Counted from the stretch's first letter, positions 2,734 through 64,000 are shown. The stretch is 64,000 nt of DNA from Methanothrix harundinacea (GCA_002506535.1 DAXT01000001.1:24165-88164), one strand, 5' to 3'. Numbers and translations are program-made. Notes: generated by a model from the letters alone, not told the origin.

Positions 2734-2734
2734 G

Positions 2735-3739
2735 ATGGCGGCCCGATACGCCTTCGAGCTCTCGGGGGAGCACCCGACGATCCCGCGCAGCGAGGCGCTC
2801 TCCCTTCTGGAGGTCACCTCGGCCGGATATTGGATCATCTCCGAATCCGACCGGTGCCTCGTCGTCGAGGCCCGACACCTCGACCTCTCCCTCGCCCGCC
2901 TCGGCGCGAGGATGGCGATGACCCACCGGATCATCGAGGTAGCCGCCGATGGCGAGCCGACGGCTCAAGGCGTCTCCAAGGCCGCCGCGGAGCTCGACCT
3001 CCCGGATAAGACCTATAAAGTCCGGGCGAAGCGGCTCGGCGAGGCTTCCATCGCAAGCGACGAGGTGGAGAGGATGGTGGGCTCCGTTCTCTGGAGAAGG
3101 GGATACAAAGCCGACCTGGCCGAGCCCGAGATCGAGATCCGGGCGGTCGTCACCGAAGACCGGGTCCTTCTCGGCCGGGAAGTCGCCCGCTCCGATAGGG
3201 CCGGGTTTCGGGCCCGGCGCCCTCACCTGAAGCCCTTCTTCTACCCGGGGACTATTCTCCCGAAGCTCGCAAGAGCCCTCGTCAACCTCTCCTGCGCCAG
3301 AGAGGGGGAGCGGCTCCTCGACCCCTTCGCCGGGACCGGAGGGTTCCTGGTGGAGGCGGGGCTGATGGGGGTCCGGGGGGTCGGCCTCGACGTCCAGAGG
3401 AGAATCGTCCGGGGCGCCCTCGCCAACCTGGAGGGGCTCGACTGCTCCCTCATCGTCGGAGACGCCATGGCCCTTCCCCTCAAGGACAGGTCCGTCGAGG
3501 CGGCCGTCTCCGACGCCCCCTACGGCAGGTCGGCCCTCATCCAGGCCGGATCGCGAGACGAGCTTCTGGCTGGAAGCCTCGCCGAGCTGCGGCGGGTCCT
3601 TATCCCCGGCAGGAGGATGGTATTCGTCGACGACCGGCCCGTCGGTGAATTGATCGTGGAGGCGGGTTTTGAGGTCCTGGAGGTCCACCGGGAGCGGGTC
3701 CACAGGAGCCTGACGCGGCAGATATACGTCTGCAGGTGA
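2735..3739 (+). CDS. THUMP-domain SAM-dependent RNA methyltransferase, Trm-G10/Trm11-like (tRNA guanine-N2)
   Basis: I chose the ATG at 2735 (MAARYAFELSGEHPTIP...), in frame with track ORF 2633..3739. SAM motif LLDPFAGTGGFLVEAG and catalytic SDAPYG are present. Confidence 0.75.
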   Translation: MAARYAFELSGEHPTIPRSEALSLLEVTSAGYWIISESDRCLVVEARHLDLSLARLGARMAMTHRIIEVAADGEPTAQGVSKAAAELDLPDKTYKVRAKRLGEASIASDEVERMVGSVLWRRGYKADLAEPEIEIRAVVTEDRVLLGREVARSDRAGFRARRPHLKPFFYPGTILPKLARALVNLSCAREGERLLDPFAGTGGFLVEAGLMGVRGVGLDVQRRIVRGALANLEGLDCSLIVGDAMALPLKDRSVEAAVSDAPYGRSALIQAGSRDELLAGSLAELRRVLIPGRRMVFVDDRPVGELIVEAGFEVLEVHRERVHRSLTRQIYVCR

Positions 3740-3758
3740 GGAAGAGGCCGCCTTCGAA

Positions 3759-9900: not shown

Positions 9901-10888
9901 CTCCCTTAAGCCCTCCACCGCTAATCTTGGCGATGATAACCAGGCAATCGTCTTCTTTGTGGAGGCCGCCTGTCAACCTCGGCCCCTCCACAGTCATACT
10001 CAAGACGCCCATGATGGCGCCTACCGGCACCTCCAGGATACCCAACTTAACCTTAGAGTCGGAGGTAACGGCACTTTTGAGAGCCTCACCTACGTTGGAG
10101 CTGATCATCGGGTGTATAGATAGCTCATCTTTGCCTGGTGAGTCCATGCCTTGATAGGCCAGACCGTACGGATCTGTTTCATCCACCGTCAGGTAAAGGT
10201 CTACCAACCGCGCCAGCTCGTTTGACAAGACCGAAGATATCCCTTCCGCGCTGGATTTCAGCGTGTCATCCCCAGTAAGGTTGGAGAACTGAAGGATCGC
10301 GATCCGCGTGCGCGATTTGTAAGCCCAGCGAATCAAAATCAAAAGGGCCGAGATGGCGAAGACCTTCATCCAGAAATCCGGCATCAGGAGATCCATCCAC
10401 CATGGGGGAGAGTTCGTTATCGCGTCGCTGAGATTGCCGCTCGGGGCGATGGCAAGAGTCCCATTCAGCGTGCCGTTCAATGTCCCGCTGAGAGTTGCGT
10501 TGAAGGTGCTGTTTAAAGTGATATTTTGACCGCCATCATTTAGAGCGATTTGGATTATCTTAAGAATTGAGGCTACGCTAATCAGCAAAAGGATGGCTGG
10601 TCTCCAGCCGCTCGACAACCAGGAGAAGACGATCCCGCAGCCTTGGGAGACCCACCAGGCCAGATAACGGAACCTTATACTGAACCAGGCAGGAAAGATC
10701 AATGTTAGAAGGATGAAAAGCGCTTCGAAAAAAATTAGCGGTTGCATCAACGCAGGATTTACTGAATGGGGTATCACCCACTTTGCCAAGGCAAGGTAAA
10801 TCGGTATAATAAGAGGAAGCGTGAAAAGGAGATATCTAAACCGATAGGAGAAGAGGTACAAATCCCGCCTTATTTCGCAGAAATCCAT
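6947..10888 (-). CDS. Large membrane-anchored protein: about 5 TM helices, a sequon-rich loop, a TolB-N-like domain and a long TPR region
   Basis: 1313-aa uninterrupted ORF in a visibly AT-rich segment. The N-terminal roughly 190 aa are hydrophobic helices. The loop reads NITLNSTFNATLSGTLNGTLNGTL...GNLS. The motif RIAILQFSNLTGDD resembles the IAVLPFxNxSGD start of TolB-N-like domains in bacterial TPR/BTAD proteins. The remainder is TPR-like helical repeats (e.g. CYYNLGVVYFALEEYESA, FELGKVLIDVGKYSEAAKCLEYALKINP). Confidence 0.8.
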   Translation of the reverse strand: MDFCEIRRDLYLFSYRFRYLLFTLPLIIPIYLALAKWVIPHSVNPALMQPLIFFEALFILLTLIFPAWFSIRFRYLAWWVSQGCGIVFSWLSSGWRPAILLLISVASILKIIQIALNDGGQNITLNSTFNATLSGTLNGTLNGTLAIAPSGNLSDAITNSPPWWMDLLMPDFWMKVFAISALLILIRWAYKSRTRIAILQFSNLTGDDTLKSSAEGISSVLSNELARLVDLYLTVDETDPYGLAYQGMDSPGKDELSIHPMISSNVGEALKSAVTSDSKVKLGILEVPVGAIMGVLSMTVEGPRLTGGLHKEDDCLVIIAKISGGGLKGDWRVSSSEISEEIPKEGDRLSRMIRQLAYRIFTDLEREHIGTPRWRAVCHYTTGLRCYRDTLRTDRDKKPLLRQAERAFLLALGEDKEFLRCYYNLGVVYFALEEYESAYSVLSEAAEPKEPKDRLSNVYHAMAQNHLQIQEKMIGEKKKANKWEDVDYQFTLKLCDQAIKLQPDNVRAWNLKGFVKRRVKEQEVKGQLTTGKCQDYWRDEVVPFRGVATALAWREMCLCRLKGDEDVGHKKILLSASCTRNLAVALSYADLPAKNIMKIFLSLHISSYFGKLELCQSIHLTPNDADLYFELGKVLIDVGKYSEAAKCLEYALKINPKAVFWSYLAEAYSKQSLADSALYAYKRAVDNLSGINRETLERSKNVLDNLSNNKLDRDWYIVQVITRLYELYEVEYEIEGDSEDIRKLLKFMIKFDNDKHPPIKNLSRFMCGLEKVKFVKNYKCELGILISSPSNWGYALVFQKLRDIRGDKNKTSEMLNEAMLDFMKNETEDAYKIRLENLKSILSGWDWGYALALLKLADLESDSGKKVSKINEAVHHLEKDHPQETRKQGLHGKLAHALMSQTKPEYGRALYQAQRSVALDPRSSWDRGVLSEVYRGYQSFEEVNAQLKICLSIDPANLELLQKIAFSRPELGIGLRDIEKRQDALQKFVEILNRALELLQSDSIKREDESENSMKSRTWTHFWLGQAHYELGEFDNAIYNWTVAMNLTEKSDISSHLVAKYNLGSAYLANRSYNECEDLYTKLLRYVNDSHLPKLKEEKKDIYKDMTLQKMASLVEVGLELGFQKFSLGYMVSRSYLNMALSYAERDVYAERNEDFGYVLKIVEAAGNYIKELSMEDDSDKTDMKSRLYHCGGWILYKQAKLGDGSGIKKAIDSLEKAVCMRAEPEYYLHLALALEYELETYGEDERKTGKAEFQRTLNRAFACCDHVEDLDLKKRYTRQAKDVRRRLRRIEKSHQKAIEANGSKPGPDPAYV

Positions 10889-17517: not shown

Positions 17518-17715
17518 CGCGATCCCACGCCTATCGACGAGGATGAAAATCCTGGGAGGCTATGAACCTTTTGCCGGAGGATGGGAAGAAAACAGGAAGG
17601 TTCGATGAGTTACGAATAGACGAAGAGAGACGGAGCGCAGACCGTCGGGGAAGAGACGGACTGATCGACGGAGAAGAGACGGGCCGATCAAGAATAAAAC
17701 AAAAAAGGGTCGTAG

Positions 17716-17789
17716 CGGACTCGCCGGGATTCGAACCCGGGACTGAGGCTCCGGAGGCCCCCGTGTTATCCAGACTATACTACGAGTCC
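17716..17789 (-). tRNA. tRNA-Arg (anticodon CCG)
   Basis: Hand-folded. 7-bp acceptor GGACUCG/CGAGUCC; anticodon stem GGGGC/GCCUC with loop CUCCGGA; T-arm CCGGG-UUCGAAU-CCCGG. The D-stem has one A.C mismatch. No encoded CCA. Confidence 0.8.
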
Positions 17790-27949: not shown

Positions 27950-28380
27950 ATATTTTGATGGAGATTGTGGAGGATCTGATGATGGAGCTTCGATTTAAGT
28001 CGGATTGAAGGGAGACGAAAGATTAAAATAAACTAAGTTATAAGTTAAAATATGATATTAATGGTAATCAGCTCCTGAAGATCAAAAGTTATACGACAGA
28101 TTTCTGGTTTATAATTCTGTTAAGTTGAACTGGAAAAGGAGCGATGCACAGATTCGATCGATATTTTGGCTGCGACTGTTAATCAACGGATCTAGCCCCA
28201 TTGATCCACAGCCAGCGTCTTCCATCGCGAAGACCTGCAGATAAAGGAGGGTAATGATCATATAAATCAATAAAAATCGATAAATTATTGTCAAACGAAA
28301 AATTTAAGTATAATAAAGAAAAATCCCGGTGGGGCAACTTATGTGCTTGTAGACTTAAGTTGTTCCGAGGAACCGGATAG

Positions 28381-28818
28381 GTGCAGATTATGGCAGAGTC
28401 AAAGTTAGAGAATCTTACGGAATCTGTGAGCAGAGATATCCTGGCCAGGGCGGGAATAAGCGATGAGGTGGCAGACAAGCTCGACCGACTTTATGAAGAA
28501 GCTCCGTTGCTCGGTGGCACCGTCGACCAGGAGATAAGCATTCAGATAACGAACGGACATGGGTCGGGAGGGGTGGACAAAACCACCGCCTGGGTGACCA
28601 TCACCGGCTACTGCGAAATAAAAGAGCCTGCCAACGGCACATGGACGATCATCGCAAAAGACGGCGGAAAGACGGTTTTCAATCGCAGTGGATTAAAAAA
28701 AGGAGACAAAGTAGATTTCAGCTACAAGACAGATTTTAAGCTGCACCTAAAAGTCGAGGCGATCTGGAGTGAGGGCGGAGATACGACCTTAAAGGCGTTC
28801 ATACACGCCACGTATTGA
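28381..28818 (+). CDS. Hypothetical protein (helical N-terminus, beta-rich C-terminus)
   Basis: 145-aa ORF (GTG 28381 or ATG 28390) following an AT-rich 430-bp spacer. No recognisable motifs and no signal peptide. Confidence 0.45.
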   Translation: MQIMAESKLENLTESVSRDILARAGISDEVADKLDRLYEEAPLLGGTVDQEISIQITNGHGSGGVDKTTAWVTITGYCEIKEPANGTWTIIAKDGGKTVFNRSGLKKGDKVDFSYKTDFKLHLKVEAIWSEGGDTTLKAFIHATY

Positions 28819-28966
28819 GGACGCCTCCGAGATTTTGGCGCTTCGATAAATCGTCCTGCTGATGGCAGATGTGTCTTGTGCCGATCCCCCGATCCCACAA
28901 TTTGTGCCGTCTGCATGACCTTATTTTTAGCACGACCTCCAAGGATATTGTAGAGGCCTTCGATAA

Positions 28967-29461
<495 letters not shown>

Positions 29462-29841
29462 GGCAGAGATATTCAAAATCGGTTAATTTGGTTTAAGATT
29501 TTTATATTTAAGATCACGTATATGCAGTATAATGCCCCAAAGAGATTCCTTTTAGAGGAAAAATTTTTTTATTCAAAGTTATGAATGAATCGTAAGATAT
29601 GATTTCAGGAATCGTATAATGAACGGAAGATATGGACTATAGCTTAATGAGAATACATGCACGTTAATTCGGAACATGCTGGTTTTTGTGTTTCGGGATG
29701 TATCGATGAATCGAGAACGTTTATGCAAAATGATCCAACAAGTCTGCGAACTTGGGAAAATCTATTTAACTAAGTTTGGAGATAAGCTATGGCGATTAGA
29801 GCGGCCTTATTTATAGCAATATAAGGCCGAGTTAAGAAAGG

Positions 29842-32800
29842 ATGTTGATGGTTGGAGGGAGATCGATGAATTGTCGAAGCTGGCCTTACCAGTCGAGGAA
29901 TATAATCCGACTTGCATTAGCATTTTCGTTTGTCCTATTACTAATCGGTCAGGTAGATTGCGCCATTGATATAAATTTTGCAGATAGATATAGTAATCCG
30001 AGTTTCGAGCCCGGTGAAGAGATAGTGATTAAATGGAACGTGGATTCCACAAAAGAATTGGAATACTACACCGTTTCAGTCCACGAAAAAAATACATCAG
30101 CGGAGAAGTGGTCGCATAAATTCATGCCGGGTTTTGATATACAGGAGTCCGAAACACTTCGTATACGAGATGAAGGGCAATATTACGTCCAAATAGCGAC
30201 ACGTCCAACTGATCCCCACCTTCCTCCGGACAGCTATTCCAATGCCTTCTCAGTTACGATTGAAAAAGGAAGCATACTAATTGAGAAATTTTATGATACT
30301 AATGATAATGGCATCATGGACCCTGGTGAGGGGCTTGCAGGTCAGTTCAACGTGGCATTTATTGGCGGAAATCCGCAACAATACTCTACCGATAATGGAA
30401 GTTTGATTATTCCCGACCGAGGGACGGTTGAGCATATTATTGAGGACGTGGGGGTCCAACAGGGATGGCGCACCATCGATCCTAGGAGAACCGTAACAGT
30501 AAAAGCTCGCGAAACGGTAGCGGTTAAATTCAAAACAGTACCAACTCCTGTAATCATATCTGAACTTACGCCGAAACATGATTCTCGATTCAGCTCTAAT
30601 GATGTAAGATTCTCTTGGAAGACATCTGAGAGCAGCACTAGCAAGTTATATTTAAAGGCGGTGGGAGATACGAACTACCGGCTTCTGACCGGAGCCGATG
30701 GATTCGATCATTCAATCGATGCTACAGGTCTCGAACGAAATACTGCTTATGATTTCTATGTTAAGAGTGAGTCGGGGATTAGATCGGGCCAGAGTGAACC
30801 TAGGAGATTCTTTGTAGATAACGGGATTACCTTTGACCCGAGATCATACGAATTTGATATCAATAGGGATTACAACCAACAGAAATTCCTATCTATTACT
30901 AATACGGACTCAAGGGCACATGATCTTCTCGTGGGCATATCTAACCCGTACGAAGATATATATTTGGATTTTGTAGGAAATGGCTCTGCTGGCAGAGAAA
31001 TCAGATTAGAGCCTGGCGAGGCTAGAGATCTTGAACTGGTTATCCATGCCCAGGATGCCATGTCGGAAAGCTACGCCTTGGATGCAAACCTGACGAACCT
31101 CGGCCCAGAGGAAATAGTAGACTACGCCTCGGTCAAAGTGAATGTCAGGCAGCCTAATATCGATTTTGATTTCAGAGAAGTAGGCACCGATCCGTTCACG
31201 CTGACCAAGACGTATAGGATCACAAATCGCAAAGACCCCTTGACGGATCTGAGCGTGATGCCTGATAAGGATCTAGAGAGAAATGTCGTCATTCAGCCCG
31301 TTGTTGAGCATTATTACTTGGGAACTGGGGAATCTATCGAATTCTCTGTTAGTCCTCTATGGTCAACGGAGATCGGATCGATCAGTGGTACCTTAAGGGC
31401 CTCTGCAGCTAGCTCGAGCAAAGTACTGGATGTAGATTTCTCATGTGATGGGGGGCGGCAGCTTCACCAAGTAATACTCACGCATCCTATATTGTACTTC
31501 GATCTTAAGAGCCTCTACTGCACCAACGCATGTCCTCTTGGAGGTACGTTCAACCTGCCTCCAGGGCTTACTTCTGACAAGGTAGTATATGCTCGAATAA
31601 ATCTGGAGCTCAATTCGGAAGATCTGAATAAACAGTTGAGAAGATACAGTACCTGGATAAATATCAACGACCACTTGGTTGGGAGGTTGGATAATACCAT
31701 CCCGTCTGGACATCACGTGTTTGAAATCGACCCAGCTCATTTCAACTACGCGATGGCAGGTTCCGCCTCAAACAGTTATACTCTGGATTCGGATATAACT
31801 CGATCTTACTTAACAATGCTATCCAACATCAGAGTAATAATATGCGTGGATGAGCTGAGGCTATACATCTGTGCTGAAAACCAGCAGGATGCAGAAAAGA
31901 TTGCATGGACAGCTCCTTGGATTTACAGACCATCCGAAGAAATTGATGCAGATATCATCTCGCCTGAAAGCGGTGAATGGGTGGAAGAAGGCAAACCTGT
32001 GATTATAAAAGCAAAAATTTTGGGTGATGAAGGGCGAGAGGAGAAGCATTGCACCGTTATAGCAACAATTAGCGATAGCGATCACCAGATATATCTGGTA
32101 GATAACGGGCGGCATGGCGATGGTCAGGCGGATGATGGGATCTATGCCAACACGTGGACCCCTCATAAAACCGGCGTCTTTGAGATAGGTGTGAGGGCGA
32201 GCAACTGCGCAAGCGAGGGAACGGCATCTATGCAGGTCGGTGTAACGAGCCGGAATAGGCTTGAGATCGTGAATTTCCATGATCTTAACAACAACGGCAG
32301 GCAGGATCCCGGTGAAATCGGTCTTTCTGGATGGGAGTTCGCTATCCAAGGTCCTGCCGGTATCGAAACAAAGCTTTCCGATATTGATGGGAGAATTCGC
32401 TATATTTATACTCCTGGGAGATATGTGATTAACCAATCTGTCAAACCTGGATGGTACAGCACCTCTGTTTTCCCAAGAGAGGCGCCACTTGATAGCGGAC
32501 TTGTAACGCTCTATTTCGGAGTCGATGAGCTAAAGAACCTAAATATTTATCTGTTCGAGGATCGAAACAGAAATGGCTTGCTCGATTCTGGAGAGTCAGG
32601 AATACCCAACCGAGAATTTAGAATCGTCAGCCAAAACGGATCCAATGAAATCATGTACACCGATTCGGAGGGCAAGATCGTATACGAGGTCCGCTCCAAC
32701 AGCAGATACACGGTATCAGAGACGTTGCCCTTGGGATGGTACAATTCGACCCCAACGAAACAGACCGCAGAGGTAGGCCTTAGCGACTTGAATCTGTTTT

Positions 32801-34254
32801 TCGGAGATTATCAGTTACCTCCTGTCATAGAGGTCCAGGCGTACGATGACATCAACTGCGACGGGATATGGGATCATCCGAAAGAGACAGGTGTAGCCAA
32901 TAGGGTCTTTAGAATCGTTGGCCCTGAGGACTTAATCGATACGATAGTAACGAACGAGGACGGGTATGCTTATTACTTATGTCCTAGCCCTGGGAATTAT
33001 ACGATTGAAGAGATTGAGTCATCCTGCTGGTGCAATACAACCTCATCCACCGTACGCACCTTTGAGATGAAGATGGGAGATCGTACAAGGGAGGTTTTCG
33101 GCAGCTACGAATGTTGTTCTCAATGCGTATGTATGCCACCAGTGGAATCAACGATGTTTAGATTTGGCGATCTCGACGTCACGAAGTCTATAAGACCCCA
33201 CATTTTATATCCCAATCAGATCAACTCTAAAAATGGGTCCGTTATAAATTACACACTACAAGTTAGCGTTAGGCCCAAGATGCCACCGACGGATCTGGTG
33301 ATCGCAGTTGACACATCGAACAGCCTTTTGAAAGCGGGTCAAAAAGCCCGCGATGATACAAAGAAGGGCATAACAAGGTTCATAGAAGCAAACAGAGGCA
33401 GCCCGGATCTAAGGATAGGGTTGGCCTCCTGGGATGAAGATATCGATTTCTCAGTGGGACCAACAGACAACTATACTGCTCTCATGGAAGCTGTTGATAA
33501 CCTCGAAGCAAACCACCTGGAGGCAGCAGATTATCAGGTCGGAATAGAAGCCGCCCTTGATGCATTCGGGAAATCTCCCAGCGATGCCAGGAAGGTGGTC
33601 GTCTTCATAACCTATGCTCAAGATGAATACGGATCATTCGAGAATTATGCGGCTCTTGATGAGCACGTTATCTACGCGATCGCGATCGTTCCAGGAAATC
33701 TCGACGAGGCTTATGAGCAGATGCTAGCTGACATCACCAGAGAGCATCGCGGAGAACTGATAATCTTGGAGGATCCGGAGAGGATCGAATCAAGCCTAAT
33801 CAGATTGACTTCGGAGAAGCTTCTGGCTACCAGATATCTGGAGAACGTGCAGGTGATCGATTCGCTTCCGAGCTATCTGAGCCCGATAGATGGGACTTTC
33901 ACAAGGGAGCCCTCTGATATCAGGATAAACGACGACGGAAGAAGCTGGAAAACGAAGACGATGGTGTGGGATATAGCCAACCTATCTTCAGATGGGGGAT
34001 GGAATACATCTTATGATGTCCTATTCTGCTGGAGAATCCAAGGGAATGTTTACCAGAAACTCGATTCGCCGAGGGTGACATCTGAGATCATTTACACCGA
34101 CCTAGAATCAGGTGCCATGAGGCGCCTCCCAGTACCAGAAGGAGGAATTTGGATAATGCCACATCCACTCGAAAAGCCTTCTGGAATCCCAGGCTTTGGA
34201 ATATTGATGTCAGTAGTAATATTTTTAATAACGATACGCATATTTAGGAAGTAA
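29842..34254 (+). CDS. Giant cell-surface protein: signal peptide, SdrD-B-like repeats, vWA domain and a PGF-CTERM-like anchor
   Basis: 1470 aa in an AT-rich island. Signal-like N-terminus LALAFSFVLLLIGQVDCA. Four Ca-binding-type repeats: YDTNDNGIMDPGEGLAG, FHDLNNNGRQDPGEIGLSGW, FEDRNRNGLLDSGESGIPN, YDDINCDGIWDHPKETGVAN. vWA MIDAS motif DLVIAVDTSNS (33310-33324). C-terminus PSGIPGFGILMSVVIFLITIRIFRK. Confidence 0.85.
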   Translation: MLMVGGRSMNCRSWPYQSRNIIRLALAFSFVLLLIGQVDCAIDINFADRYSNPSFEPGEEIVIKWNVDSTKELEYYTVSVHEKNTSAEKWSHKFMPGFDIQESETLRIRDEGQYYVQIATRPTDPHLPPDSYSNAFSVTIEKGSILIEKFYDTNDNGIMDPGEGLAGQFNVAFIGGNPQQYSTDNGSLIIPDRGTVEHIIEDVGVQQGWRTIDPRRTVTVKARETVAVKFKTVPTPVIISELTPKHDSRFSSNDVRFSWKTSESSTSKLYLKAVGDTNYRLLTGADGFDHSIDATGLERNTAYDFYVKSESGIRSGQSEPRRFFVDNGITFDPRSYEFDINRDYNQQKFLSITNTDSRAHDLLVGISNPYEDIYLDFVGNGSAGREIRLEPGEARDLELVIHAQDAMSESYALDANLTNLGPEEIVDYASVKVNVRQPNIDFDFREVGTDPFTLTKTYRITNRKDPLTDLSVMPDKDLERNVVIQPVVEHYYLGTGESIEFSVSPLWSTEIGSISGTLRASAASSSKVLDVDFSCDGGRQLHQVILTHPILYFDLKSLYCTNACPLGGTFNLPPGLTSDKVVYARINLELNSEDLNKQLRRYSTWININDHLVGRLDNTIPSGHHVFEIDPAHFNYAMAGSASNSYTLDSDITRSYLTMLSNIRVIICVDELRLYICAENQQDAEKIAWTAPWIYRPSEEIDADIISPESGEWVEEGKPVIIKAKILGDEGREEKHCTVIATISDSDHQIYLVDNGRHGDGQADDGIYANTWTPHKTGVFEIGVRASNCASEGTASMQVGVTSRNRLEIVNFHDLNNNGRQDPGEIGLSGWEFAIQGPAGIETKLSDIDGRIRYIYTPGRYVINQSVKPGWYSTSVFPREAPLDSGLVTLYFGVDELKNLNIYLFEDRNRNGLLDSGESGIPNREFRIVSQNGSNEIMYTDSEGKIVYEVRSNSRYTVSETLPLGWYNSTPTKQTAEVGLSDLNLFFGDYQLPPVIEVQAYDDINCDGIWDHPKETGVANRVFRIVGPEDLIDTIVTNEDGYAYYLCPSPGNYTIEEIESSCWCNTTSSTVRTFEMKMGDRTREVFGSYECCSQCVCMPPVESTMFRFGDLDVTKSIRPHILYPNQINSKNGSVINYTLQVSVRPKMPPTDLVIAVDTSNSLLKAGQKARDDTKKGITRFIEANRGSPDLRIGLASWDEDIDFSVGPTDNYTALMEAVDNLEANHLEAADYQVGIEAALDAFGKSPSDARKVVVFITYAQDEYGSFENYAALDEHVIYAIAIVPGNLDEAYEQMLADITREHRGELIILEDPERIESSLIRLTSEKLLATRYLENVQVIDSLPSYLSPIDGTFTREPSDIRINDDGRSWKTKTMVWDIANLSSDGGWNTSYDVLFCWRIQGNVYQKLDSPRVTSEIIYTDLESGAMRRLPVPEGGIWIMPHPLEKPSGIPGFGILMSVVIFLITIRIFRK

Positions 34255-34302
34255 TAAGCTGCTGACATATACATTTCAATATTTTTACAAAGAGGAACTT
34301 GT

Positions 34303-35112
34303 ATGGACGGTGGGAACGTAGCGCATAGTACGAGAGATATTGGGTGGTTTTTGGACCAGCTCAAAATTGGACTATTAATATATATAGTAGTACAGGTCCC
34401 TTCATATTTAAGCTCTATTTCTATTGTATTTTCAATTATAATTGCAATTATATTTATTATAATTTTTTCATTACTTCCTATAAACACTATAAATCGTATG
34501 ATACCCTGCGCTCGCGATAAAATAAATCGTATGATTTTTTATCTGGGACTTTCTATTGCTGTTGTTATCACCTCGATATTCATTTGGGGATTTAGTTACG
34601 GTTCTGTAATACCATTAATGTTTTTATTAATGTTGCTAATTATAGCACTTAAATCTACTCAAATTTTTAATTTTACCAGTGCAAAGCTGAATTTAATTTT
34701 GCACAGAATAGCAGCGTATAGTATTATCCTTTCTTTAGCCACAAGTGCTGCACCGATTGTTGGGGAATTCGATGAATTTAATAAGGATAGAACGAATAAT
34801 GCTTTATCTTATCAATTAATAATCAAGAACGAATGCAATTTTCCGATCAATTACGAGATTCGAGGAATCAATATAGACTTGATGCCTGGAAAATACCAAA
34901 GTGTTCCAGCTCCACCATACATTTTAATCGTGGCACATCATGGATCATATATTTCTGTCTGCGACTCTAATGGAATACTAAATCAAATTTTTAAAATACC
35001 ACCTAATAAATCTATATTTATATCTATAGATAATCAACCGTTAATTCCTGGAGATCGCAAAGAGATATACCCAGATAAGGATCATGTATTAGTGATAAAA
35101 AGTCGATATTGA
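34303..35112 (+). CDS. Hypothetical polytopic membrane protein with a C-terminal soluble domain
   Basis: 269 aa and extremely AT-rich. About 5 hydrophobic helices precede a roughly 110-aa non-hydrophobic tail. It lies 48 nt downstream of the surface protein on the same strand. Confidence 0.6.
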   Translation: MDGGNVAHSTRDIGWFLDQLKIGLLIYIVVQVPSYLSSISIVFSIIIAIIFIIIFSLLPINTINRMIPCARDKINRMIFYLGLSIAVVITSIFIWGFSYGSVIPLMFLLMLLIIALKSTQIFNFTSAKLNLILHRIAAYSIILSLATSAAPIVGEFDEFNKDRTNNALSYQLIIKNECNFPINYEIRGINIDLMPGKYQSVPAPPYILIVAHHGSYISVCDSNGILNQIFKIPPNKSIFISIDNQPLIPGDRKEIYPDKDHVLVIKSRY

Positions 35113-38818: not shown

Positions 38819-38840
38819 CCACCAAATGACTCTCTTATCC

Positions 38841-39152
38841 GCGGGCTAGTCCGGGTGGTTCGGCGTCACCTGTAACCCGATATCGCCGATATGCGGGGGA
38901 CGAAGCTGGTGGACGACTGAGGGTGTTGCAGGTTCAGTCCAGTTGCTGACTGTGATTCTCCGCCCTGTGGGGACGGCATTGGTGTCCGGGCCTGCCGGAG
39001 GGCAGGTCTGTTCATCTCAACTGCGGGGACCGGTTCAGGCCCGGAAGGGAGCAGACCTACCGCGGATAACCGTCGCTTGCAGACTTGCGGGGAGGAGAAG
39101 GTTTCTGGGTCACCTGGCCTGCGGCATCGCTGGCTACCGCCAGCGCGCCCGC
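38841..39152 (+). ncRNA. Signal recognition particle RNA (archaeal 7S RNA)
   Basis: The 5' GCGGGCUAGUCCGGGUGGUUCGGCGUCACCUGUAACC is typical of the archaeal Alu domain. The helix-8 core is GGUUCAGGCCCGGAAGGGAGCAGAC with a GGAA tetraloop. The termini pair (GCGGGC...GCCCGC). Length is about 312 nt, and no credible ORF covers it. Confidence 0.85.
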
Positions 39153-39166
39153 ATTAAAAAATCAAT

Positions 39167-44741: not shown

Positions 44742-47237
44742 CTAGTCGGACCACTCCGCCAGCTTCTTGCAGACGGCATCGGCGGAGGGGCTCTCGATCT
44801 CCTCGAAGATGGCGAGAGCGGACCTGGCCAGAGAGAGGGCCTCCTCATTTTGGCCCAGGGCGTGCAGAGAGAGGCTCATATTGAACAGGCCCTTTCCTTC
44901 GCCCCGCCGGTCCCCGATCTCCCAGGAGATTACAAGAGCCTCTTCGTAAAAATCGATCGCCTTCCGGGGATCGCCAAGATCGAAGTAAGCAAGCCCCAGG
45001 TTGCCCAGGTGGCTTCCTTCGCCCTGCCGGTCCCCGATCTCTCGTGAGATCTCGAGAGCCTGATCGTAGAGTTTGATGGCTTTTTGGAGGTTATTCAGAT
45101 GAAAATAAGCAATCCCAAGTTTGCCCAGATGAGCTCCTTCGGCTCTGCGGTAGCTGATCTCTTGTGAGATCTTGAGGGCTCGATCGTAGAACTCGATTGC
45201 CTTTTGGGGATCGCCCAGAAAGAGGTAGATTTCGCCCACATTGCCCAGGTGTATTCCTTCATTCTCCTTGTCTCCGATCTTGCGAGAAATTTTGAGCGCT
45301 TGCTCATAGTATTCGATGGCCTTGTGAGGATCCCCAAGATGAAAGTAGGCTAGGCCTAGGTTACTCAGGTTAATTCCTTCACCTCGAAGGTCTCCGATCT
45401 TATGAGAGATTTTGATTGACTGCTCGTAATACTCGATCGCCTTCTGAGTATCGCCCACATGAAAGTAGGCTAGGCCGAGATTCCCCAAATGTGCTATTTC
45501 GCCCACTAGGTCTCCGATCGAACGAGAAATTTTGAGCGCCTGCTCATAGTACTCGATGGCCTTATGAGGATCGCCAAGATGGGAGTGGTACTTACCAAGG
45601 TTATCTAGGCTATTTGCTACTGCTTTCCAGTCTTCTATATCACTAGAAATTTTGAGTACTTGTTCGGTGTATTCTATGGCCTTGTTAGGATCACCCAAAT
45701 GAGAGTAAGCTAGGCCCAGGTTGCCCAGGCTATATATTGCGAGCTGCTCGTCCCCGATTTCACGAGAAATCTTGAGTGCTTGCTCGAAATATTCTATGGC
45801 CTTGTGAGGATTGCCCAGATGAAAGTAGGCTAGGCCGAGATTCCCCAAGTGTGCCCCTTCTGCCCCCTTATTATTTATCTCACGCACTGCAGTAAGCGCC
45901 TCGTTCAACCATTCGATATATTTGGAAGGATGCAACCTTAAATTTAAAATATTGCCCATCCAGGCAAAGTCGCTGCAAATTTCTGCTATTTCGGTGCACT
46001 TGAATTTGTTCTCACTCGCCCACTTCTGCCCAGCCTCAATGTTTATCCAATCTATATCGAAAAGCATCAAGCCCATTGCCAAAAAATCATTGCCTTCCTG
46101 AATTGATTCTTCTGCCTTCCTTAGAATATTTAGGTAGTATCTGGCATGTCTCAATCTGGCCGTCTCGCGGCTATAATCATATAATTTCGATCCGGCAAAA
46201 TCCCGCGCCAGGTCGTGGAGCCGATATCGTCCCCCTTCGCCGGTGGCGGAAGGTGAAAATTCCACCAGGCTCCACCGGATCAGCTCGCCTAGAGCGTCCT
46301 CGGCGGGCATCTCTTCCATCTCCCAGACGGCCGCCGCTCCGGCGAGGTCGAAGTCTGCGGGAAATATGGAGAGGAGGGACCAGAGCCTCTGCAGCTCCGG
46401 GGTGAGGAGGTCGTAGCTCAGGGTGAAGGAGGCTTCCACCAGCTCCAGCCGCTCCCTGGCATCTCCCAATCTCTTGATGTAGTTGGCAACGCTCAAATTC
46501 GGCTTCTCTCTCAAGATAGAGGCGGCGTTTCTCAGGGCGATGGGAAGGCGACCGCAGAGCTTTGCCAGCTCTTCCGCATGATCGCCGATACGCTCGCAGA
46601 TCTCCAGGAGGAGATTCTTGGCGTCATCCTGGGGGAGGACGTCCAGGTCTTTTTCCGCCAAACCGGGAAGGGTGAATTTATTGCGAGAGGTCACCAAAAG
46701 AGAGCAGCTATTTGGTGGCAGGAGGGGCTCAACCTGGTCACGATCTGCGGCATTGTCGAGCAAGATCAAGGCCTTCTTGCCGTTTAGGACAGTTAGATAA
46801 AGCCCGCTCAGTCCATTCAACTCCTCCGGCAATGAGGCATCGGCTCCAAGATAGGAGCGAATTACGTGAGCCATGGCATCTTTGGGGTCGAGCGGGCTCT
46901 TGCTTGTGCCCAGCATATCCAAGAAGAGCTGGCCGTCTGCAAAACGATTTTTGAGTCGATCGGCCAGAACCAGGGCCAGAGCAGTCTTGCCCACGCCGCC
47001 CATGCCTCTTAGACCTGTGATGGTTGCACCATGGCCGAACTTCTCAAGAAGGCCTTTGATTTCGTCCTCACGGCCCGTGAAGTCTGCCGGTTGTGGCGGG
47101 ATTTCCTGAGGGACCGGCAAAGCCGAGGCTGAACCAGGTGGTTGAATGATCACCTTACCAGCACGGCGAATGTTGATCTGTTCTTTTACAGACTGGCCTT
47201 TTTGGTCGAAGTCTGATGGCTCCGTCATCTTCGTCAT
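44742..47237 (-). CDS. NLR-like STAND NTPase: N-terminal short Gln/Asn motif, NB-ARC domain and about 9 TPR repeats
   Basis: 831 aa. Walker A GLRGMGGVGKTALA, Walker B KALILLDNA, and LLVTSRN (RNBS-B-like). Eight near-identical 40-aa TPRs (AIEYYEQALKISRxIGDxxGEGxHLGNLGLAYFHLGDPxK) plus one degenerate repeat. Composition is lower GC than the flanks. Confidence 0.9.
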   Translation of the reverse strand: MTKMTEPSDFDQKGQSVKEQINIRRAGKVIIQPPGSASALPVPQEIPPQPADFTGREDEIKGLLEKFGHGATITGLRGMGGVGKTALALVLADRLKNRFADGQLFLDMLGTSKSPLDPKDAMAHVIRSYLGADASLPEELNGLSGLYLTVLNGKKALILLDNAADRDQVEPLLPPNSCSLLVTSRNKFTLPGLAEKDLDVLPQDDAKNLLLEICERIGDHAEELAKLCGRLPIALRNAASILREKPNLSVANYIKRLGDARERLELVEASFTLSYDLLTPELQRLWSLLSIFPADFDLAGAAAVWEMEEMPAEDALGELIRWSLVEFSPSATGEGGRYRLHDLARDFAGSKLYDYSRETARLRHARYYLNILRKAEESIQEGNDFLAMGLMLFDIDWINIEAGQKWASENKFKCTEIAEICSDFAWMGNILNLRLHPSKYIEWLNEALTAVREINNKGAEGAHLGNLGLAYFHLGNPHKAIEYFEQALKISREIGDEQLAIYSLGNLGLAYSHLGDPNKAIEYTEQVLKISSDIEDWKAVANSLDNLGKYHSHLGDPHKAIEYYEQALKISRSIGDLVGEIAHLGNLGLAYFHVGDTQKAIEYYEQSIKISHKIGDLRGEGINLSNLGLAYFHLGDPHKAIEYYEQALKISRKIGDKENEGIHLGNVGEIYLFLGDPQKAIEFYDRALKISQEISYRRAEGAHLGKLGIAYFHLNNLQKAIKLYDQALEISREIGDRQGEGSHLGNLGLAYFDLGDPRKAIDFYEEALVISWEIGDRRGEGKGLFNMSLSLHALGQNEEALSLARSALAIFEEIESPSADAVCKKLAEWSD
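44840..45920 (-). repeat. Coding tandem repeats (120-nt period) of the TPR array
   Basis: Near-identical 120-nt units are visible at about 45300, 45420, 45540, 45660 and 45780, for example gcctgctcatagta[tc]tcgatggcctt[ga]tgaggatc. Confidence 0.75.
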
Positions 47238-47239
47238 CT

Positions 47240-47641
47240 CTATTTGGTGCCGATATTTACTGAGCCTTGCACATTTCCGATATTGGTCTGGGATCCAACA
47301 TTCTGTCCACGCTGATCAAAGATTATGCGATTTGAGGAAGCCTCATTATTAATTTCATCAAATAGCTTTTTGGCCAATTCAGCAAACTCGGGGTCATCTT
47401 TCATCTTCTCAGCTAGGATTCCTTTGAGCGCAATCTGCCGGTCATCTGATTCAGGCATCTCCTGGGCTCGGGCCAAGGTCTGCTCTGCATAAGAATCTCC
47501 TTTGAATTTATTAGCTACAGCCTCGCAAAAATCAACCATCTTCCCGCCCAATTTCTCCCCGGCGGTCTTGGTGAAAGCTTCTGCGCCTTTGGCTAAGAGC
47601 GGTGCGGCAAAGGCGGCCAAACTGACCGGATCAAGTACCAT
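47240..47641 (-). CDS. Small helical protein with a C-terminal Gly/Asn/Gln-rich motif matching the NLR N-terminus (candidate Bell/HeLo-like effector)
   Basis: 133 aa. Hydrophobic N-terminus MVLDPVSLAAFAAPLLAKGAEAF, a charged helical middle, and the tail IIFDQRGQNVGSQTNIGNVQGSVNIGTK*. Its stop lies 2 nt before the NLR ATG. Confidence 0.6.
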   Translation of the reverse strand: MVLDPVSLAAFAAPLLAKGAEAFTKTAGEKLGGKMVDFCEAVANKFKGDSYAEQTLARAQEMPESDDRQIALKGILAEKMKDDPEFAELAKKLFDEINNEASSNRIIFDQRGQNVGSQTNIGNVQGSVNIGTK

Positions 47642-47732
47642 TTCAATCGAAAGATAAGTTGGTGAATGAAGATGATAAGTTTTTGGATAACACCAAACAA
47701 AAAGAGCAAAAAAAGTTATGAAGATGGGCGCT

Positions 47733-57799: not shown

Positions 57800-57873
57800 G
57801 GGCTCGTGGTCTAGCTGGTTATGACATCGCCTTGACATGGCGGGGATCATGCGTTCGAATCGCATCGAGCCCA
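57800..57873 (+). tRNA. tRNA-Val (anticodon GAC)
   Basis: Hand-folded. Acceptor GGGCUCG/CGAGCCC; anticodon stem UCGCC/GGCGG with loop UUGACAU; T-arm GCGUUCGAAUCGC. Confidence 0.9.
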
Positions 57874-57881
57874 CCTAACTC

Positions 57882-57955
57882 GCCCAGGTAGCTCAGTCCG
57901 GGAGAGCGTCAGACTGAAGATCTGAATGTCCCCGGTTCGAATCCGGGTCTGGGCA
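57882..57955 (+). tRNA. tRNA-Phe (anticodon GAA)
   Basis: Hand-folded. Acceptor GCCCAGG/UCUGGGC; D-arm GCUC-AGUCCGGGA-GAGC; anticodon loop CUGAAGA; T-arm CCCGG-UUCGAAU-CCGGG. Confidence 0.9.
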
Positions 57956-58781
57956 CTAATTTTCTTTCTGCATAATCCCCCAGCAGATCCTCTCTTTATC
58001 GTCGCGTCCGGGATATGCGGTTCCAGCGACTCCATCTATCTAGGAGGTCCGATCTACGAAATCTGTGAGGATCCCCCTATAATTTTCTTGGAGGAAAGAA
58101 ATGATTATATAGGTTCAGTATAAAAATGTTTGAGCATGGCGCGAAAACCCAAAGCAGATTTGGATCCTGTCGAAGAGGCGGCCGGAGAAGGGGCCGAGAA
58201 GGGGAAGAAGGGAAAGAAGGGGAAGACTGACGGCGAACCGAGAGCGTCGAAGGTTGTGGTCGTCAAGAGGTGAGGGTGGCCGATGGATCAAGACCACGGA
58301 TCAGATGGGATCCGGGATCAGGGCGCCCAGGGGTGCAAGAGGCGCGAGATATAATGCCGCAAAGCGGCAGGTTATGATCCTGGCAGGAGAGATCGCAGAA
58401 TTTCTGGTGGAGAGGAGGGTGCTTTTCGCCGGTCTGGCGGTCTGGCGCTAGCCATCGTTGATCAACAAAACCGGAAGACTTTTCGCCTTTGATGGCAAAG
58501 GGGATAGGCGGTGATCTCGGATGGCGTTGCATAAGAAGATCCTCAAGGTGCTGGCTCTGATCGGGATAAGCAAAATTATCGGGCTCATTAAAAAGAGGTA
58601 TAAGCGCCGCCGCTGACCCTCCGACCTTACTCCGGCCTTATCTTCTCCGGCCTTCCTCCTGCCGTCCATGGGACAAGACCGATAAATTTTTCACAGCCCT
58701 TGACAGCCTCTCCTAGGCAGAGGAAGGTGAGGAGGGCATAGAAGATGATTCTGAAACTGATTTTGCGGACGGTGGCCGGCG

Positions 58782-61214: not shown

Positions 61215-62942
61215 TCATCCATCGCAGTAAATGTATCGAGAACCACGCCCCTTGCCTACGAGTTCAACTTTTCCGGGATTTTCGTCTACAAGTTCCCTCA
61301 TTAAGCGGATAACCTGGTATCTACCTAAATGTGTGATCTGTCGAATTTCAGTATTTGAAAGCCCACTTTCGCCACGTTCAAATCTCTGCTTGAGAACGCT
61401 GAGTATCCTCGTCTTCGCTGCATCCCAGTCTATGCGCCGGTCTCTTTCTGGATGACCAGACGCCGAAAGCTTACGGTGCAAGTCAGAGCGTAATATCCAA
61501 TAGGTTCCACGACCAGATCCACCACGTTCAAGATAGTTTCGATTAAGTTCCATCTCACTGAGAGTTTCATGTGCTTGTTCCTCTGAACGCTGGCATATTC
61601 GAGCTGCTTCGATACTGCTCAGCTCAGCATGACGTAAAAGGTATTGAAGAATCAAAAGTTGATCAACCAAAAGACCTCTACCAATTTTGCTCTCTTCTTC
61701 AACGAAGGCGCGGAATGTTGTGGACAAGTCACCAGATAGTAATGTTACCCTCACCGACTCTCCCTGTTCTTCGATTAGGGGTGGCTCCTTTCCTTCAATC
61801 AGCATGTATTTGAACATGCGCGAAATTCCTAAGTTGCTACGGTTGACAAGGTGTAGCTTTGAAAGAGCATTTACTAAGTGAGGATTCCTAGACACTGGAT
61901 GATGATGTAATATATTTTTTGGAGTAATGCCGCCGATGAACCCACCTGGATTGCTGATTTCTAATTTGGAGGGGTATTGCTTGACTAGAATCGGTCCACC
62001 GATTCTATAGTCCGCATGACTAAAGGCGTTCATCAGAGCCTCACGAAGGGCGATTTCTGGATATGTACGATATTCGAAATGGAAAGGGCCGTACACTATA
62101 GTAGTGAGGGGGTTGTCTGCCATGATTCGATCGATTAAACGAGCCAACGCTATGGGCAACGCATCGCGACCGTCCATCCGATCCGAATAATCAGTATCAT
62201 CTTTCATTCGAAGATGAGTCCACACATAACCCGGAAGGTGCTCCTGAATTGATTCCCTCTTTCCGACAAGGAGCAGTCCGGACCTGGTTAAACATCCCTT
62301 CCGAAGAAGACCGATCGATTCTAAGAAATCAATATTATTTATCTGTAATAGTTCTTCAGGCGTATGACTTGCTCGCGCCACATCACGAAGATATTCCACA
62401 GCAGAAGCAGAAATATGTGAAGTAGGGTCACCCGGCACCTCGATTGCGGTGAAGTCTGTCTCGCCTGTTTCCACCATCACACGGCGTCGCATGGTTCCTG
62501 TGAGGGGTTGGCAATCCTTGCCGACGCGAATCTTGCCTTCTCCAGAAGTAGTTGTGTAAGGCGGAAGGCCCGGAAATACATACATTACCAAAAGACGACC
62601 AGTGCCTTCAGGCACTTCTAACTCTTCAAACTGAGGTGTAAGTCTTGGATCGGTGGAATCATAGACTGCTTTTTTTAGCTGGTTGATATCTATTTCAGCT
62701 GGGACACCAGAAATGGCGCGAGATCTTCCTACGACATTGTCGTTCACTCCAAATACGGTGGCCCCTCCACCCCCGTTTGCCATGCATACGGCCATATCTA
62801 CAACCATTTTCACTGATTGTTCTTTGCTATCGAAGATCCATCTCTTGAAGTCCAAGTCCTGATTTTCCAGCTCATCTGCAATTTTGGTATCCAACTCATC
62901 AAGAAGCATGGAAATCTCTTTTAGGCTACGCATTTTAATCAC
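61215..62942 (-). CDS. AlbA_2 (Schlafen-like) plus HATPase_c_4 ATP-binding protein with a C-terminal wHTH (RecG-like regulator family)
   Basis: 575 aa and AT-rich. N-terminal ENQDLDFKR...GGGATVFGV matches AlbA_2. EALMNAFSHADYRIGGPILVKQYPSKLEISNPGG matches the HATPase_c_4 core. The C-terminus is wHTH-like. Confidence 0.7.
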   Translation of the reverse strand: MIKMRSLKEISMLLDELDTKIADELENQDLDFKRWIFDSKEQSVKMVVDMAVCMANGGGGATVFGVNDNVVGRSRAISGVPAEIDINQLKKAVYDSTDPRLTPQFEELEVPEGTGRLLVMYVFPGLPPYTTTSGEGKIRVGKDCQPLTGTMRRRVMVETGETDFTAIEVPGDPTSHISASAVEYLRDVARASHTPEELLQINNIDFLESIGLLRKGCLTRSGLLLVGKRESIQEHLPGYVWTHLRMKDDTDYSDRMDGRDALPIALARLIDRIMADNPLTTIVYGPFHFEYRTYPEIALREALMNAFSHADYRIGGPILVKQYPSKLEISNPGGFIGGITPKNILHHHPVSRNPHLVNALSKLHLVNRSNLGISRMFKYMLIEGKEPPLIEEQGESVRVTLLSGDLSTTFRAFVEEESKIGRGLLVDQLLILQYLLRHAELSSIEAARICQRSEEQAHETLSEMELNRNYLERGGSGRGTYWILRSDLHRKLSASGHPERDRRIDWDAAKTRILSVLKQRFERGESGLSNTEIRQITHLGRYQVIRLMRELVDENPGKVELVGKGRGSRYIYCDG

Positions 62943-62985
62943 ATCTTATACTTTTTAATATTATATATATCTTGGGTTTGGGGCT

Positions 62986-63075
62986 CACGCCTTCGCTTCC
63001 TCCACGATCTCGATCTCCTCCTCCGAGAGGCCGTAAAGCTCGGAGATAGGGGGCATCGATCCGCTGATCCGACAT
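62986..63075 (-). pseudogene. Third, frameshifted remnant of the RM-methyltransferase C-terminal tail
   Basis: The minus strand reads MSDQRIDAP, then after a 1-nt shift ISELYGLSEEEIEIVEEAKA*. Confidence 0.45.
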
Positions 63076-63115
63076 CACCTTTTTACGCAATTCTACCGGC
63101 CAGGTATCGGCTCTT

Positions 63116-64000
63116 TTAGAGCCTCCATAGCTCACTTAAGATCTCTATTAAATGTTCTTGCCTTTTTTCAATAACTTCTGGGGTCCACTCTTGTTCTTGC
63201 AGAACCTGTGTAGTTAAAACGAAAGGTGAAATCCCTTTATCGGTGGCGAAGTATTGTCGTTTTTTCTTATCGAAATCATAGTTTCGTGCTTGGCTGTTTT
63301 TCTTGCGAGATAGCAATACCAAATTGCCTAGCTTATGAACGAACATTTCTCTGTCTTCTTTTTCAGGAAAGTGTTTAGTCCAATAGCTTCCATCACTGGG
63401 GTTTTGCGGCAATACATGCTCAATTGTTATTAATGGATACTCATAAGATGCGTTACCGTCAGAGAGAGCGGCATCTAATCTGAGAAGAACATACCGGGGT
63501 ACATTCTTGGATAAATAAATATTTCCATCCAATACATTTAAGATCTCACTTCTCTCCTGAGGTGTAATCTGCAGCGGAGAGCTTGATGTATTGAGATCAT
63601 CTCCAGCATCGATATAAGTCAAAAGCCTACCATACCGATCAAGACGTTGGTTGATATTTGCACGCAGAATCATTAAACTTGCCGCAAGACGTTCTAAGTC
63701 TGTGAAGAAATCGAATAACATATTTGGTTTATCTTTATTCTTTGAGAAATAGAGTACCGCAGGAGGTATCCAATCAACATTGTCTATTCGATTCAACCAA
63801 GATAATAGAGCGTTTACTTCCTCTGCATGTTTATAGCTCTGATACGATGAATTCTTAATAACATCGAAAGCATTGGCATACGGGATTAATACATTATCTA
63901 TAAAATTCTTAGAATCTTTGGTCGGATTTACATACTGGCGGAACTCTTTAAGGATCGTATCTTTTGGTTTAGTTTTTCGATGAATCATTCTGATATGAGC
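63116..64000 (-). CDS. GmrSD-like type IV restriction nuclease, C-terminal (DUF1524 His-Me finger) part; continues past the window end
   Basis: ITIEHVLPQNPS...HKLGNLVLLSRKKNSQARNYDFDKK is the DUF1524 signature. The frame is still open at 64000 upstream of the track's ATG (63988), so the N-terminal DUF262-type domain is probably outside the window. Confidence 0.7.
   Translation of the reverse strand, partial: AHIRMIHRKTKPKDTILKEFRQYVNPTKDSKNFIDNVLIPYANAFDVIKNSSYQSYKHAEEVNALLSWLNRIDNVDWIPPAVLYFSKNKDKPNMLFDFFTDLERLAASLMILRANINQRLDRYGRLLTYIDAGDDLNTSSSPLQITPQERSEILNVLDGNIYLSKNVPRYVLLRLDAALSDGNASYEYPLITIEHVLPQNPSDGSYWTKHFPEKEDREMFVHKLGNLVLLSRKKNSQARNYDFDKKKRQYFATDKGISPFVLTTQVLQEQEWTPEVIEKRQEHLIEILSELWRL

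Follow-up and report, generated by a model that had tools for sequence, protein, structure and literature searches.

A Bell/NLR gene pair with matching, co-varying terminal motifs at the adk-pyrH interval of Methanothrix: a probable archaeal amyloid-signalling module

The 64,000-nucleotide stretch of Methanothrix harundinacea DNA analysed here (GCA_002506535.1, DAXT01000001.1:24165-88164; hereafter the window) carries, on the minus strand between adk and pyrH, a gene for a small helical protein of 133 residues followed by a gene for an 831-residue NLR-like protein, a STAND (signal transduction ATPase with numerous domains) protein that combines an NB-ARC domain with tetratricopeptide repeats (TPRs). 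We propose that the two form a two-gene Bell/NLR amyloid-signalling module of this archaeon, a reading to which we assign a probability of about 0.7. The features of a Bell/NLR pair are found together at this locus: the genes are adjacent, the first encodes a Bell-type candidate effector, its partner bears NB-ARC and TPRs, the two proteins share a terminal motif in which Q, N, G, V and I abound and P and L are scarce, and the host is a Methanothrix. A sequence-only reading had suggested an amyloid-signalling pair, and that suggestion is now supported by termini that match and co-vary in orthologous pairs, by the lack of a competing protein family, by a sensor start that lies upstream of the motif and by a published pair, GP6, from the same genus.

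The likeness between the two proteins is confined to the motif. The top local alignment of the two whole proteins joins Bell residues 108-121 (FDQRGQNVGSQTNI) to NLR residues 10-23 (FDQKGQSVKEQINI) with a BLOSUM62 score of 47; shuffled termini scored 18.3±3.7, and 47 was reached in 1 of 5000 shuffles. These segments give a common motif, FDQ[RK]GQxVxxQxNI, located C-terminally in Bell and N-terminally in the NLR, and nothing besides it aligns, as the sequence-only reading had claimed. That reading had counted 10 of 14 motif positions as identical; the correct figure is 9 of 14, with the R/K and N/S pairs being conservative changes. The fraction of Q, N, G, V and I is 0.69 in the Bell-side motif and 0.54 in the NLR-side motif, leucine is absent from both and proline from the Bell side as well. 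When the Bell tail was compared with the other open reading frames (ORFs) of the window, none matched.

Genome and metagenome scans returned 100 loci, from which 57 non-identical pairs of Bell tail and NLR head were extracted, the window pair included. In these Methanotrichaceae pairs we found termini that both match and co-vary: the mean local-alignment score of cognate partners was 60.0, compared with 42.2±1.6 for permuted partners, and the observed value was reached in 0 of 10,000 permutations. The co-variation signal arises from subtype-specific matched changes. A one-residue indel is shared by the two partners, such that V-GT-QTNI occurs in both or V-HGx-QTNI occurs in both, and substitutions are matched in the same way, with FDQRGQ replaced by F[SH]GQ in both partners (loci L019, L020, L074 and L076) and QTNI by QT[VI]I. 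Further matched forms are FDL (L068), EANAPV[FI]SG (L018, L070 and L072) and GN[IV]GTVN[FI]G (L014), each present in both partners.

Both motifs also bear the mark of selection at the protein level. The ratio of nonsynonymous to synonymous polymorphism (pN/pS) was 0.23 over the 14 codons of the NLR-side motif (pS 0.63) and 0.17 over the 23 codons of the Bell-side motif (pS 0.49), each from 25 unique DNA versions. It follows that the two motifs are translated and that purifying selection acts on them although synonymous change is close to saturation; a recent duplication is excluded. In the window pair, the motif is identical at only 24 of 42 nucleotides between the two genes, and 7 of the 9 identical residues differ in codon, only two CAG codons coinciding. 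The earlier claims that most matched codons differ, and that the likeness is held at the protein level without a recent DNA duplication, thus agree with codon differences, nucleotide identity and pN/pS alike, and these data rule out recent duplication or gene conversion as the origin of the motif. The same data bear on the idea that the likeness is a functionless, neutral remnant of an exchange, by duplication or gene conversion, between one gene's 3′ end and its neighbour's 5′ end. The motifs lie about 110 nt apart or less, which would make local duplication mechanistically easy, yet both are conserved across lineages (pS 0.5-0.6, pN/pS about 0.2) and they co-vary, matched indels included; together with the codon data this has already refuted a neutral origin, which we hold to be extremely improbable.

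The two genes of the window lie on the same strand with a gap of 2 nt, or of 11 nt if the second ATG (M4) is the start, and the coordinates and sequences (Table 1) agree with the earlier description of co-oriented minus-strand neighbours separated by 2 nt. Orthologous pairs have the same layout, most with gaps of -14 to +12 nt. In most of them the NLR starts 10-12 nt past the Bell stop, which is the position of the window's M4 (47228-47226), and M4 may therefore be the true start, with a predicted sensor of 828 residues. Whichever start is used, M1 or M4, it lies upstream of the motif, and the motif codons are in frame in all orthologues, with the pN/pS and pS values given above.

Table 1. Coordinates of the Bell/NLR pair and its parts in the window
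Feature	Position	Strand	Basis and remarks
Bell-domain candidate effector gene, 133 aa	47240..47641	(-)	Intact ORF, coordinates including stop; TAG 47242-47240
Helical bundle of Bell protein, aa 5-103	47333..47629	(-)	AlphaFold2; N-terminal hydrophobic helix aa 5-18 (DPVSLAAFAAPLLAK), preceded by an acidic residue
Putative effector-side signalling motif, aa 108-133, FDQRGQNVGSQTNIGNVQGSVNIGTK	47243..47320	(-)	Matches NLR N-terminus; conserved in orthologues
NB-ARC/TPR STAND (NLR-like) candidate sensor gene	44742..47237	(-)	831 aa from M1, ATG 47237-47235
Putative sensor-side signalling motif, aa 10-32, FDQKGQSVKEQINIRRAGKVIIQ	47142..47210	(-)	Core aa 10-23 = nt 47169-47210; local alignment, co-variation
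Pro-rich linker, aa 33-55, PPGSASALPVPQEIPPQPADFTG	47073..47141	(-)	Joins motif to NB-ARC; read from sequence
NB-ARC domain, aa 59 to ~345	46203..47063	(-)	PF00931 aa 59-257, E 4e-7
TPR sensor region, aa ~440-831	44745..45920	(-)	Pfam TPR_12 and related, E down to 6e-86
adk-Bell intergenic region, 91 nt, T-rich	47642..47732	(-)	Read from sequence

On its sequence features, the small protein belongs to the family that Dyrka et al. 2020 defined as Bell. It falls within the 120-140 residues typical of that family and has an alpha-helical domain of about 100 residues, with an N-terminal helix that is hydrophobic and an acidic residue within positions 2-4. It begins MVLDPVSLAAFAAPLLAK, most homologues begin MDPxSLAA..., and the pattern is conserved family-wide; a hydrophobic helix at the N-terminus, with a D/E-P-x-S start, is the hallmark of Bell, Hell and related killing domains (Dyrka et al. 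2020; Ibarlosa et al. 2024). The AlphaFold2 model contains six helices (residues 5-18, 20-27, 29-46, 50-61, 66-82 and 84-103) with block-mean predicted local distance difference test (pLDDT) scores of 71-92. The tail, residues 104-133, is disordered in the model, with a pLDDT of about 50 or less over the motif, a result that is uninformative as to amyloid. We found more than 160 close homologues, all named ones being from Methanothrix or Methanotrichaceae and the tail being highly conserved, and the family profile retrieved 993 cluster representatives at E<=0.001. Most of these clusters are 125-150 residues long, start with MDPxxLAxxAVxLLAPYLAKAGE and have diverse tails rich in G, N, Q and V, some of which resemble published tails of the BASS6 motif (e.g., SGERS[IV]A..G..ITGD). 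The cluster members of ten distant relatives are almost all metagenome proteins, with one from an Anaerolineae bacterium.

Searches of the 133-residue protein against Pfam, PADLOC and NCBIfam returned sub-threshold noise only and no family, and a check for an unrelated characterised family behind it found none, the profile retrieving Bell-type proteins instead. A PF20701 tag precomputed on two of its homologues was not reproduced. A sequence-profile search of the PDB with the Bell family gave nothing relevant; its match to a covalent cytochrome c555 trimer (E 9e-6) was judged spurious, being the sum of three weak stretches with a monomer E of 0.19.

Relatives of the small protein also occur in other architectures. 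Methanotrichaceae fusions of a Bell domain and the motif include P0121 (383 residues), which carries a CHAT domain, and P0135 (1108 residues), which carries HATPase_c_4, NB-ARC and TPRs, while in P0140 (305 residues, partial) Bell domain and motif are joined directly to NB-ARC. Several of these Bell-fusion relatives bear a second conserved segment, GGEAxDxRGxxGAIYKPSGxVxQHxGD. At four loci (L016, L062, L063 and L067) a Bell-like N-terminal domain runs into an ORF of about 418 residues that ends ...FDQGIVALLLEGIPEENKPELL (the match in L016 lies at about 4001-4390); the adjoining NLR starts MDFRDSKGAIINPTGKVEQHIGDQYNNY, and the termini there mismatch, with scores of 15-19.

The earlier assignment of NB-ARC and TPRs to the 831-residue protein is borne out by matches to Pfam PF00931 and to multiple TPR families. 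The NLR motifs are intact, with Walker A GMGGVGKT at residues 78-85, Walker B LILLDN at 157-162, LLVTSR at 180-185, the GLPL-like GRLPIA at 229-234 and the MHD-like LHD at 340-342. The first 55 residues consist of the motif and the Pro-rich linker and nothing else, and all orthologues have a P-rich linker equivalent to it that ends in DFTGR. Eight regular TPR units of 40 residues occupy positions 458-777 (consensus xxEGxHLGNLGLAYFHLGDPxKAIEYYEQALKISxxIGDx) and are visible in the DNA as 120-bp tandem repeats with 69-74% matches. In a PADLOC scan, which includes the Avs/NLR models of antiphage STAND systems, the NLR matched generic TPR models only and the Bell protein matched none. The AfsR and HaaT matches in NCBIfam span only the NB-ARC/TPR core and fall far under the cut-offs (282 versus 1430 bits), and a regulator of the SARP, AfsR or MalT type was rejected because no DNA-binding domain (SARP/BTAD or LuxR helix-turn-helix) accompanies that core. 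At L049 and L052 the in-frame sequence upstream of NB-ARC contains a long, hydrophobic, transmembrane-like stretch (…SAVILLIVLSALAILLGLFPD…VAVGVVSGVIEIIGFL), which precedes the motif in L052; these NLRs may be a membrane-anchored variant or an artefact of read-through from the upstream ORF.

A Methanothrix pair of this kind has been catalogued before. The GP6 pair of M. soehngenii (AEB69174.1/AEB69175.1; Bell side RTAFDQRGQTVHGSQTNIAGNVNRP, NLR side KSRFDQRGQKVIGQQINVAGDATLP) is listed in Table S2 of Dyrka et al. 2020 (bioRxiv 10.1101/2020.01.06.895854), where M. soehngenii is flagged as multicellular, and the M. soehngenii Bell domain of Fig. 1C in that study has the same tail as the small-protein family. 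The same survey placed Bell domains in 94 of 1183 archaeal genomes, exclusively in Methanosarcinales. The sequence-only reading had taken archaeal examples to be sparsely documented at best, which overestimated the novelty, since examples are documented in Methanothrix itself. Like the window pair, GP6 has a Bell gene followed by a collinear NB-ARC NLR gene (11 bp apart in GP6) and the core FDQRGQxVxxxQxN[IV]. In contrast to GP6, the window motif has one residue fewer between V and Q (VGSQTNI) and represents a different subtype, and the window tail ends GNVQGSVNIGTK whereas the GP6 tail continues AGNV...SGTFSGPVN. The synthetic NLR-side peptide of GP6, AEB69175.1(5-29), formed Congo-red-positive, amyloid-like aggregates with a Fourier-transform infrared spectrum compatible with a beta-arch (Dyrka et al. 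2021, PMC8086366). The labels given to the GP6 motif differ: its Bell side is bass_02:all_24 and its NLR side lies outside all BASS1-10 profile models (Dyrka et al. 2020, Table S2), and it was later described as "resembling BASS3" (PMC8086366). Judged by eye, the window motif is a poor fit to the published consensus of BASS2 (VHNxISGGxQxGPVLQGRD) and of BASS3 (xGVQ[IV]GxxNxQxNxF).

The window pair also resembles systems from farther afield. Bacterial Bell/NLR pairs (BASS1-10; Actinobacteria and Cyanobacteria; Dyrka et al. 2020) are likewise adjacent, collinear genes, typically <=10 bp apart, in multicellular or filamentous hosts. They share a G/N/Q/V/I-rich motif of about 25 residues, which is C-terminal in the Bell protein and N-terminal in the NLR, and the repeats of their NB-ARC/TPR sensors are conserved internally; the window host, unlike theirs, is an archaeon. 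The same logic operates in fungal NWD2/HET-S (and in HELLP/PNT1 and sigma), where the motif at the N-terminus of the NLR serves as template for the matching one at the C-terminus of an adjacent effector, a helical protein that targets the membrane. Between these fungal effectors and the window Bell protein, with neither a HeLo/HELL/SesA Pfam match nor a structural match, the likeness is one of mechanism and homology is not demonstrable. The HET-s prion domain consists of two 21-residue pseudo-repeats that form a beta-solenoid, whereas the window tail repeats itself only briefly, if at all (NVGSQTNIG / NVQGSVNIG). In Escherichia coli Bab/Agp, a small Bell-related helical effector again carries a C-terminal motif matching the N-terminal motif of an adjacent sensor, and activation of Bab via the shared amyloid motif leads to abortive infection, with experimentally shown cell death and changes to the membrane (Ibarlosa et al. 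2024, bioRxiv 10.1101/2024.11.07.622273). Bab/Agp differs from the window pair in its shorter Babybell domain (about 80 residues) and in its motif, BASS11.

By analogy with NWD2/HET-S, the bacterial BASS pairs and Bab/Agp, we can outline how the window pair might work. Binding of a trigger to the TPR array would cause the NB-ARC domains to oligomerise, and the N-terminal motifs so gathered would form a beta-arch or amyloid nucleus. This nucleus would template the matching Bell tail, whose conversion would free the hydrophobic helix 1 to attack the membrane and kill the cell, with abortive infection or altruistic suicide within the filament as the predicted outcome. A function of the pair in cell death and defence is thus suggested by analogy, and the trigger is probably viral or otherwise non-self.

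Several observations weigh against an amyloid-signalling module. The HeLo, HELL and SesA Pfam models (PF14479, PF17111 and PF17707) had no match to the Bell protein, even at E<=1, and a Foldseek search with the Bell model found no significant fold in the PDB or among viral structures (BFVD), the best E values being 1.4 and 0.79. Its top matches were generic helical bundles, with no HeLo or MLKL chains among the PDB matches listed; because no Foldseek match had an E below 0.79, a likeness of the Bell protein to HeLo, MLKL or Bab is not demonstrable. Only the first 14 residues of the window motifs align gap-free, and extension beyond them brought no gain without a gap (9/26), though a one-residue shift would, by eye, add matches at G, V and I beyond the 14-residue core, which is weak evidence. 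The window's NLR-side motif is among the more diverged, with a cognate score of 47 compared with the mean of 60. Across the 57 pairs, the cognate head ranked first for only 6 tails; by eye, the poor ranks are mainly among pairs of the window's subtype, where cognate specificity is weak. Ibarlosa et al. 2024 (bioRxiv 10.1101/2024.11.07.622273) describe the function of Bell/NLR pairs as still awaiting elucidation.

Some of these points would also fit a different role for the shared motif, as a peptide for one-to-one docking without amyloid (for instance a beta-strand zipper or a tag for heterodimerisation) that tethers the small protein, then a regulatory or adaptor subunit, to the STAND ATPase, with neither templated polymerisation nor membrane killing. 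Co-variation shows that the termini interact or share a constraint and says nothing of the manner, the helical bundle has no fold match among known pore-formers, and only about 14 residues align cleanly in the window pair. Docking of this kind nonetheless strikes us as rather improbable: the motif has the composition typical of BASS motifs, with Q/N/G/V/I enriched and P and L depleted; amyloid aggregation in vitro has been seen for the homologous GP6 peptide (PMC8086366); fungal systems and E. coli Bab/Agp, which have the same architecture, work by templating of an amyloid; and the N-terminal hydrophobic helix with its D/E-P-x-S start, the hallmark of killing domains, is conserved.

We next consider the genomic position of the pair, which the sequence-only reading had described as a lower-GC insert between pyrH and adk. 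The lower GC stands: the GC content at third codon positions (GC3) is 0.49 in the Bell gene and 0.61 in the NLR gene, compared with 0.78-0.90 in neighbouring genes. An insert specific to the window does not, as the pair occupies the same adk-pyrH interval in at least 14 of 22 genome loci, all of them Methanothrix or Methanotrichaceae, and its low GC3 relative to neighbours recurs in every related genome at this position; synteny and GC3 together rule out a window-specific horizontal insert. In L019 the adk-Bell gap (1706-3920) holds a 515-residue calcineurin-like phosphoesterase (metallophosphoesterase) and a HicB/HicA toxin-antitoxin pair, and in L008 (2921-3780) it holds two small ORFs with no Pfam match; given this extra cargo, the interval behaves as a variable hotspot. 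Degraded Bell remnants lie at the adk/pyrH position in L021 (4001-4159) and L022 (2449-2580), and the L021 NLR is reduced to a 54-residue TPR fragment, which suggests that decay has removed the pair from some lineages.

At this position the NLR alleles are incongruent with the flanking genes. Among 19 loci, adk is 83-100% identical and NB-ARC 48-98%, with a Spearman correlation between the two of 0.08. The loci L003 and L019 encode identical adk proteins (97.7% at the nucleotide level) and NB-ARC domains that are only 53% identical, and across L003, L019 and L009 the adk proteins are 99-100% identical (96-98% nucleotide), NB-ARC is only 52-75% identical and the Bell-tail subtypes differ. The metagenome-assembled genome JAGOLL01 holds two pairs with differing motif subtypes (L001 and L014), and two classes of NLR head occur with one Bell tail subtype.

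This polymorphism also bears on what the pair might recognise. Amyloid signalling could serve allorecognition or developmental death between or within Methanothrix filaments, in the manner of a het locus, and have no antiviral role. The locus is highly polymorphic between conserved flanks (the Spearman value of 0.08 and the L003/L019 comparison), the host genus is filamentous and flagged as multicellular (Dyrka et al. 2020, Table S2), and the fungal paradigm NWD2/HET-S is an incompatibility system (Dyrka et al. 2020). Hypervariable sensors are equally typical of antiviral NLRs, however, relatives have HicAB and further accessory genes in the adk-pyrH interval, as one would expect of a defence hotspot, and the sole functional precedent in prokaryotes is antiphage (bioRxiv 10.1101/2024.11.07.622273). 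We consider an allorecognition role unlikely; from the sequence, the trigger could be viral (defence) or allogeneic (incompatibility).

The two ends of the locus and the remainder of the window add the following. The 91-nt adk-Bell intergenic region presumably holds the adk terminator and a predicted promoter of the pair. At the other end, the NLR stop region (44742-44754) shares 13 nt with pyrH if the longest ORF of that gene, from GTG 44754, is taken; pyrH probably starts at a codon further downstream, and the two genes may not truly overlap. Scans for Rfam families and tRNAs gave no match within the Bell/NLR locus. Elsewhere in the window, the RNA genes at 38839-39154 (+), 17715-17789 (-) and 57800-57956 (+) comprise an archaeal signal recognition particle (SRP) RNA (201 bits), tRNA-Arg(CCG), tRNA-Val(GAC) and tRNA-Phe(GAA); the SRP RNA and tRNAs confirm an archaeal chromosome and have no relation to the pair. 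Three further regions are of low GC. At 6947-10888 (-), an island with a GC of 0.41-0.49 compared with about 0.63 in its flanks carries a 1313-residue ORF with TPR repeats, which may be another accessory or sensor-type protein. The island at 28000-35112 (+) (GC 0.35-0.50) contains a 1470-residue ORF (29842-34254) with SdrD_B, SpaA-like and VWA domains, which looks like a surface or adhesin-type protein, followed by a 269-residue ORF (34303-35112) with no Pfam match. The low-GC end at 61215-63988 (-) (GC 0.40-0.46) has two defence-like genes, one for a 575-residue protein with Schlafen AlbA_2 and HATPase_c_4 domains and one for a 290-residue protein with a GmrSD_C (DUF1524-type) endonuclease domain.

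The window pair adds a well-supported archaeal instance of NLR-to-effector amyloid signalling, which is known from fungi and bacteria and had already been noted in Methanothrix, and to that extent its value is confirmatory. Two points go beyond the literature: the quantitative co-variation of 57 pairs and the adk-pyrH interval as a conserved yet hypervariable cassette site. The first of these, with its matched indels, is on comparative grounds a stronger argument for interacting termini than GP6 as a single listed pair, and the second, being fixed in position, makes it easy to study in populations how archaeal NLRs diversify. Tentatively, adk-pyrH in Methanothrix may be a long-lived, vertically positioned immune locus at which divergent Bell/NLR cassettes are kept as alleles or swapped repeatedly between lineages, with co-evolving motif subtypes serving as barcodes against cross-talk between paralogous sensor-effector channels of one genome. 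The uncoupling of NB-ARC from adk, the two head classes, the genome with two pairs, the low GC3 and the degraded copies are all consistent with this possibility, and if it is true, the adk-pyrH interval would resemble fungal het and plant R loci in its trans-species polymorphism or in the exchange of its cassettes.

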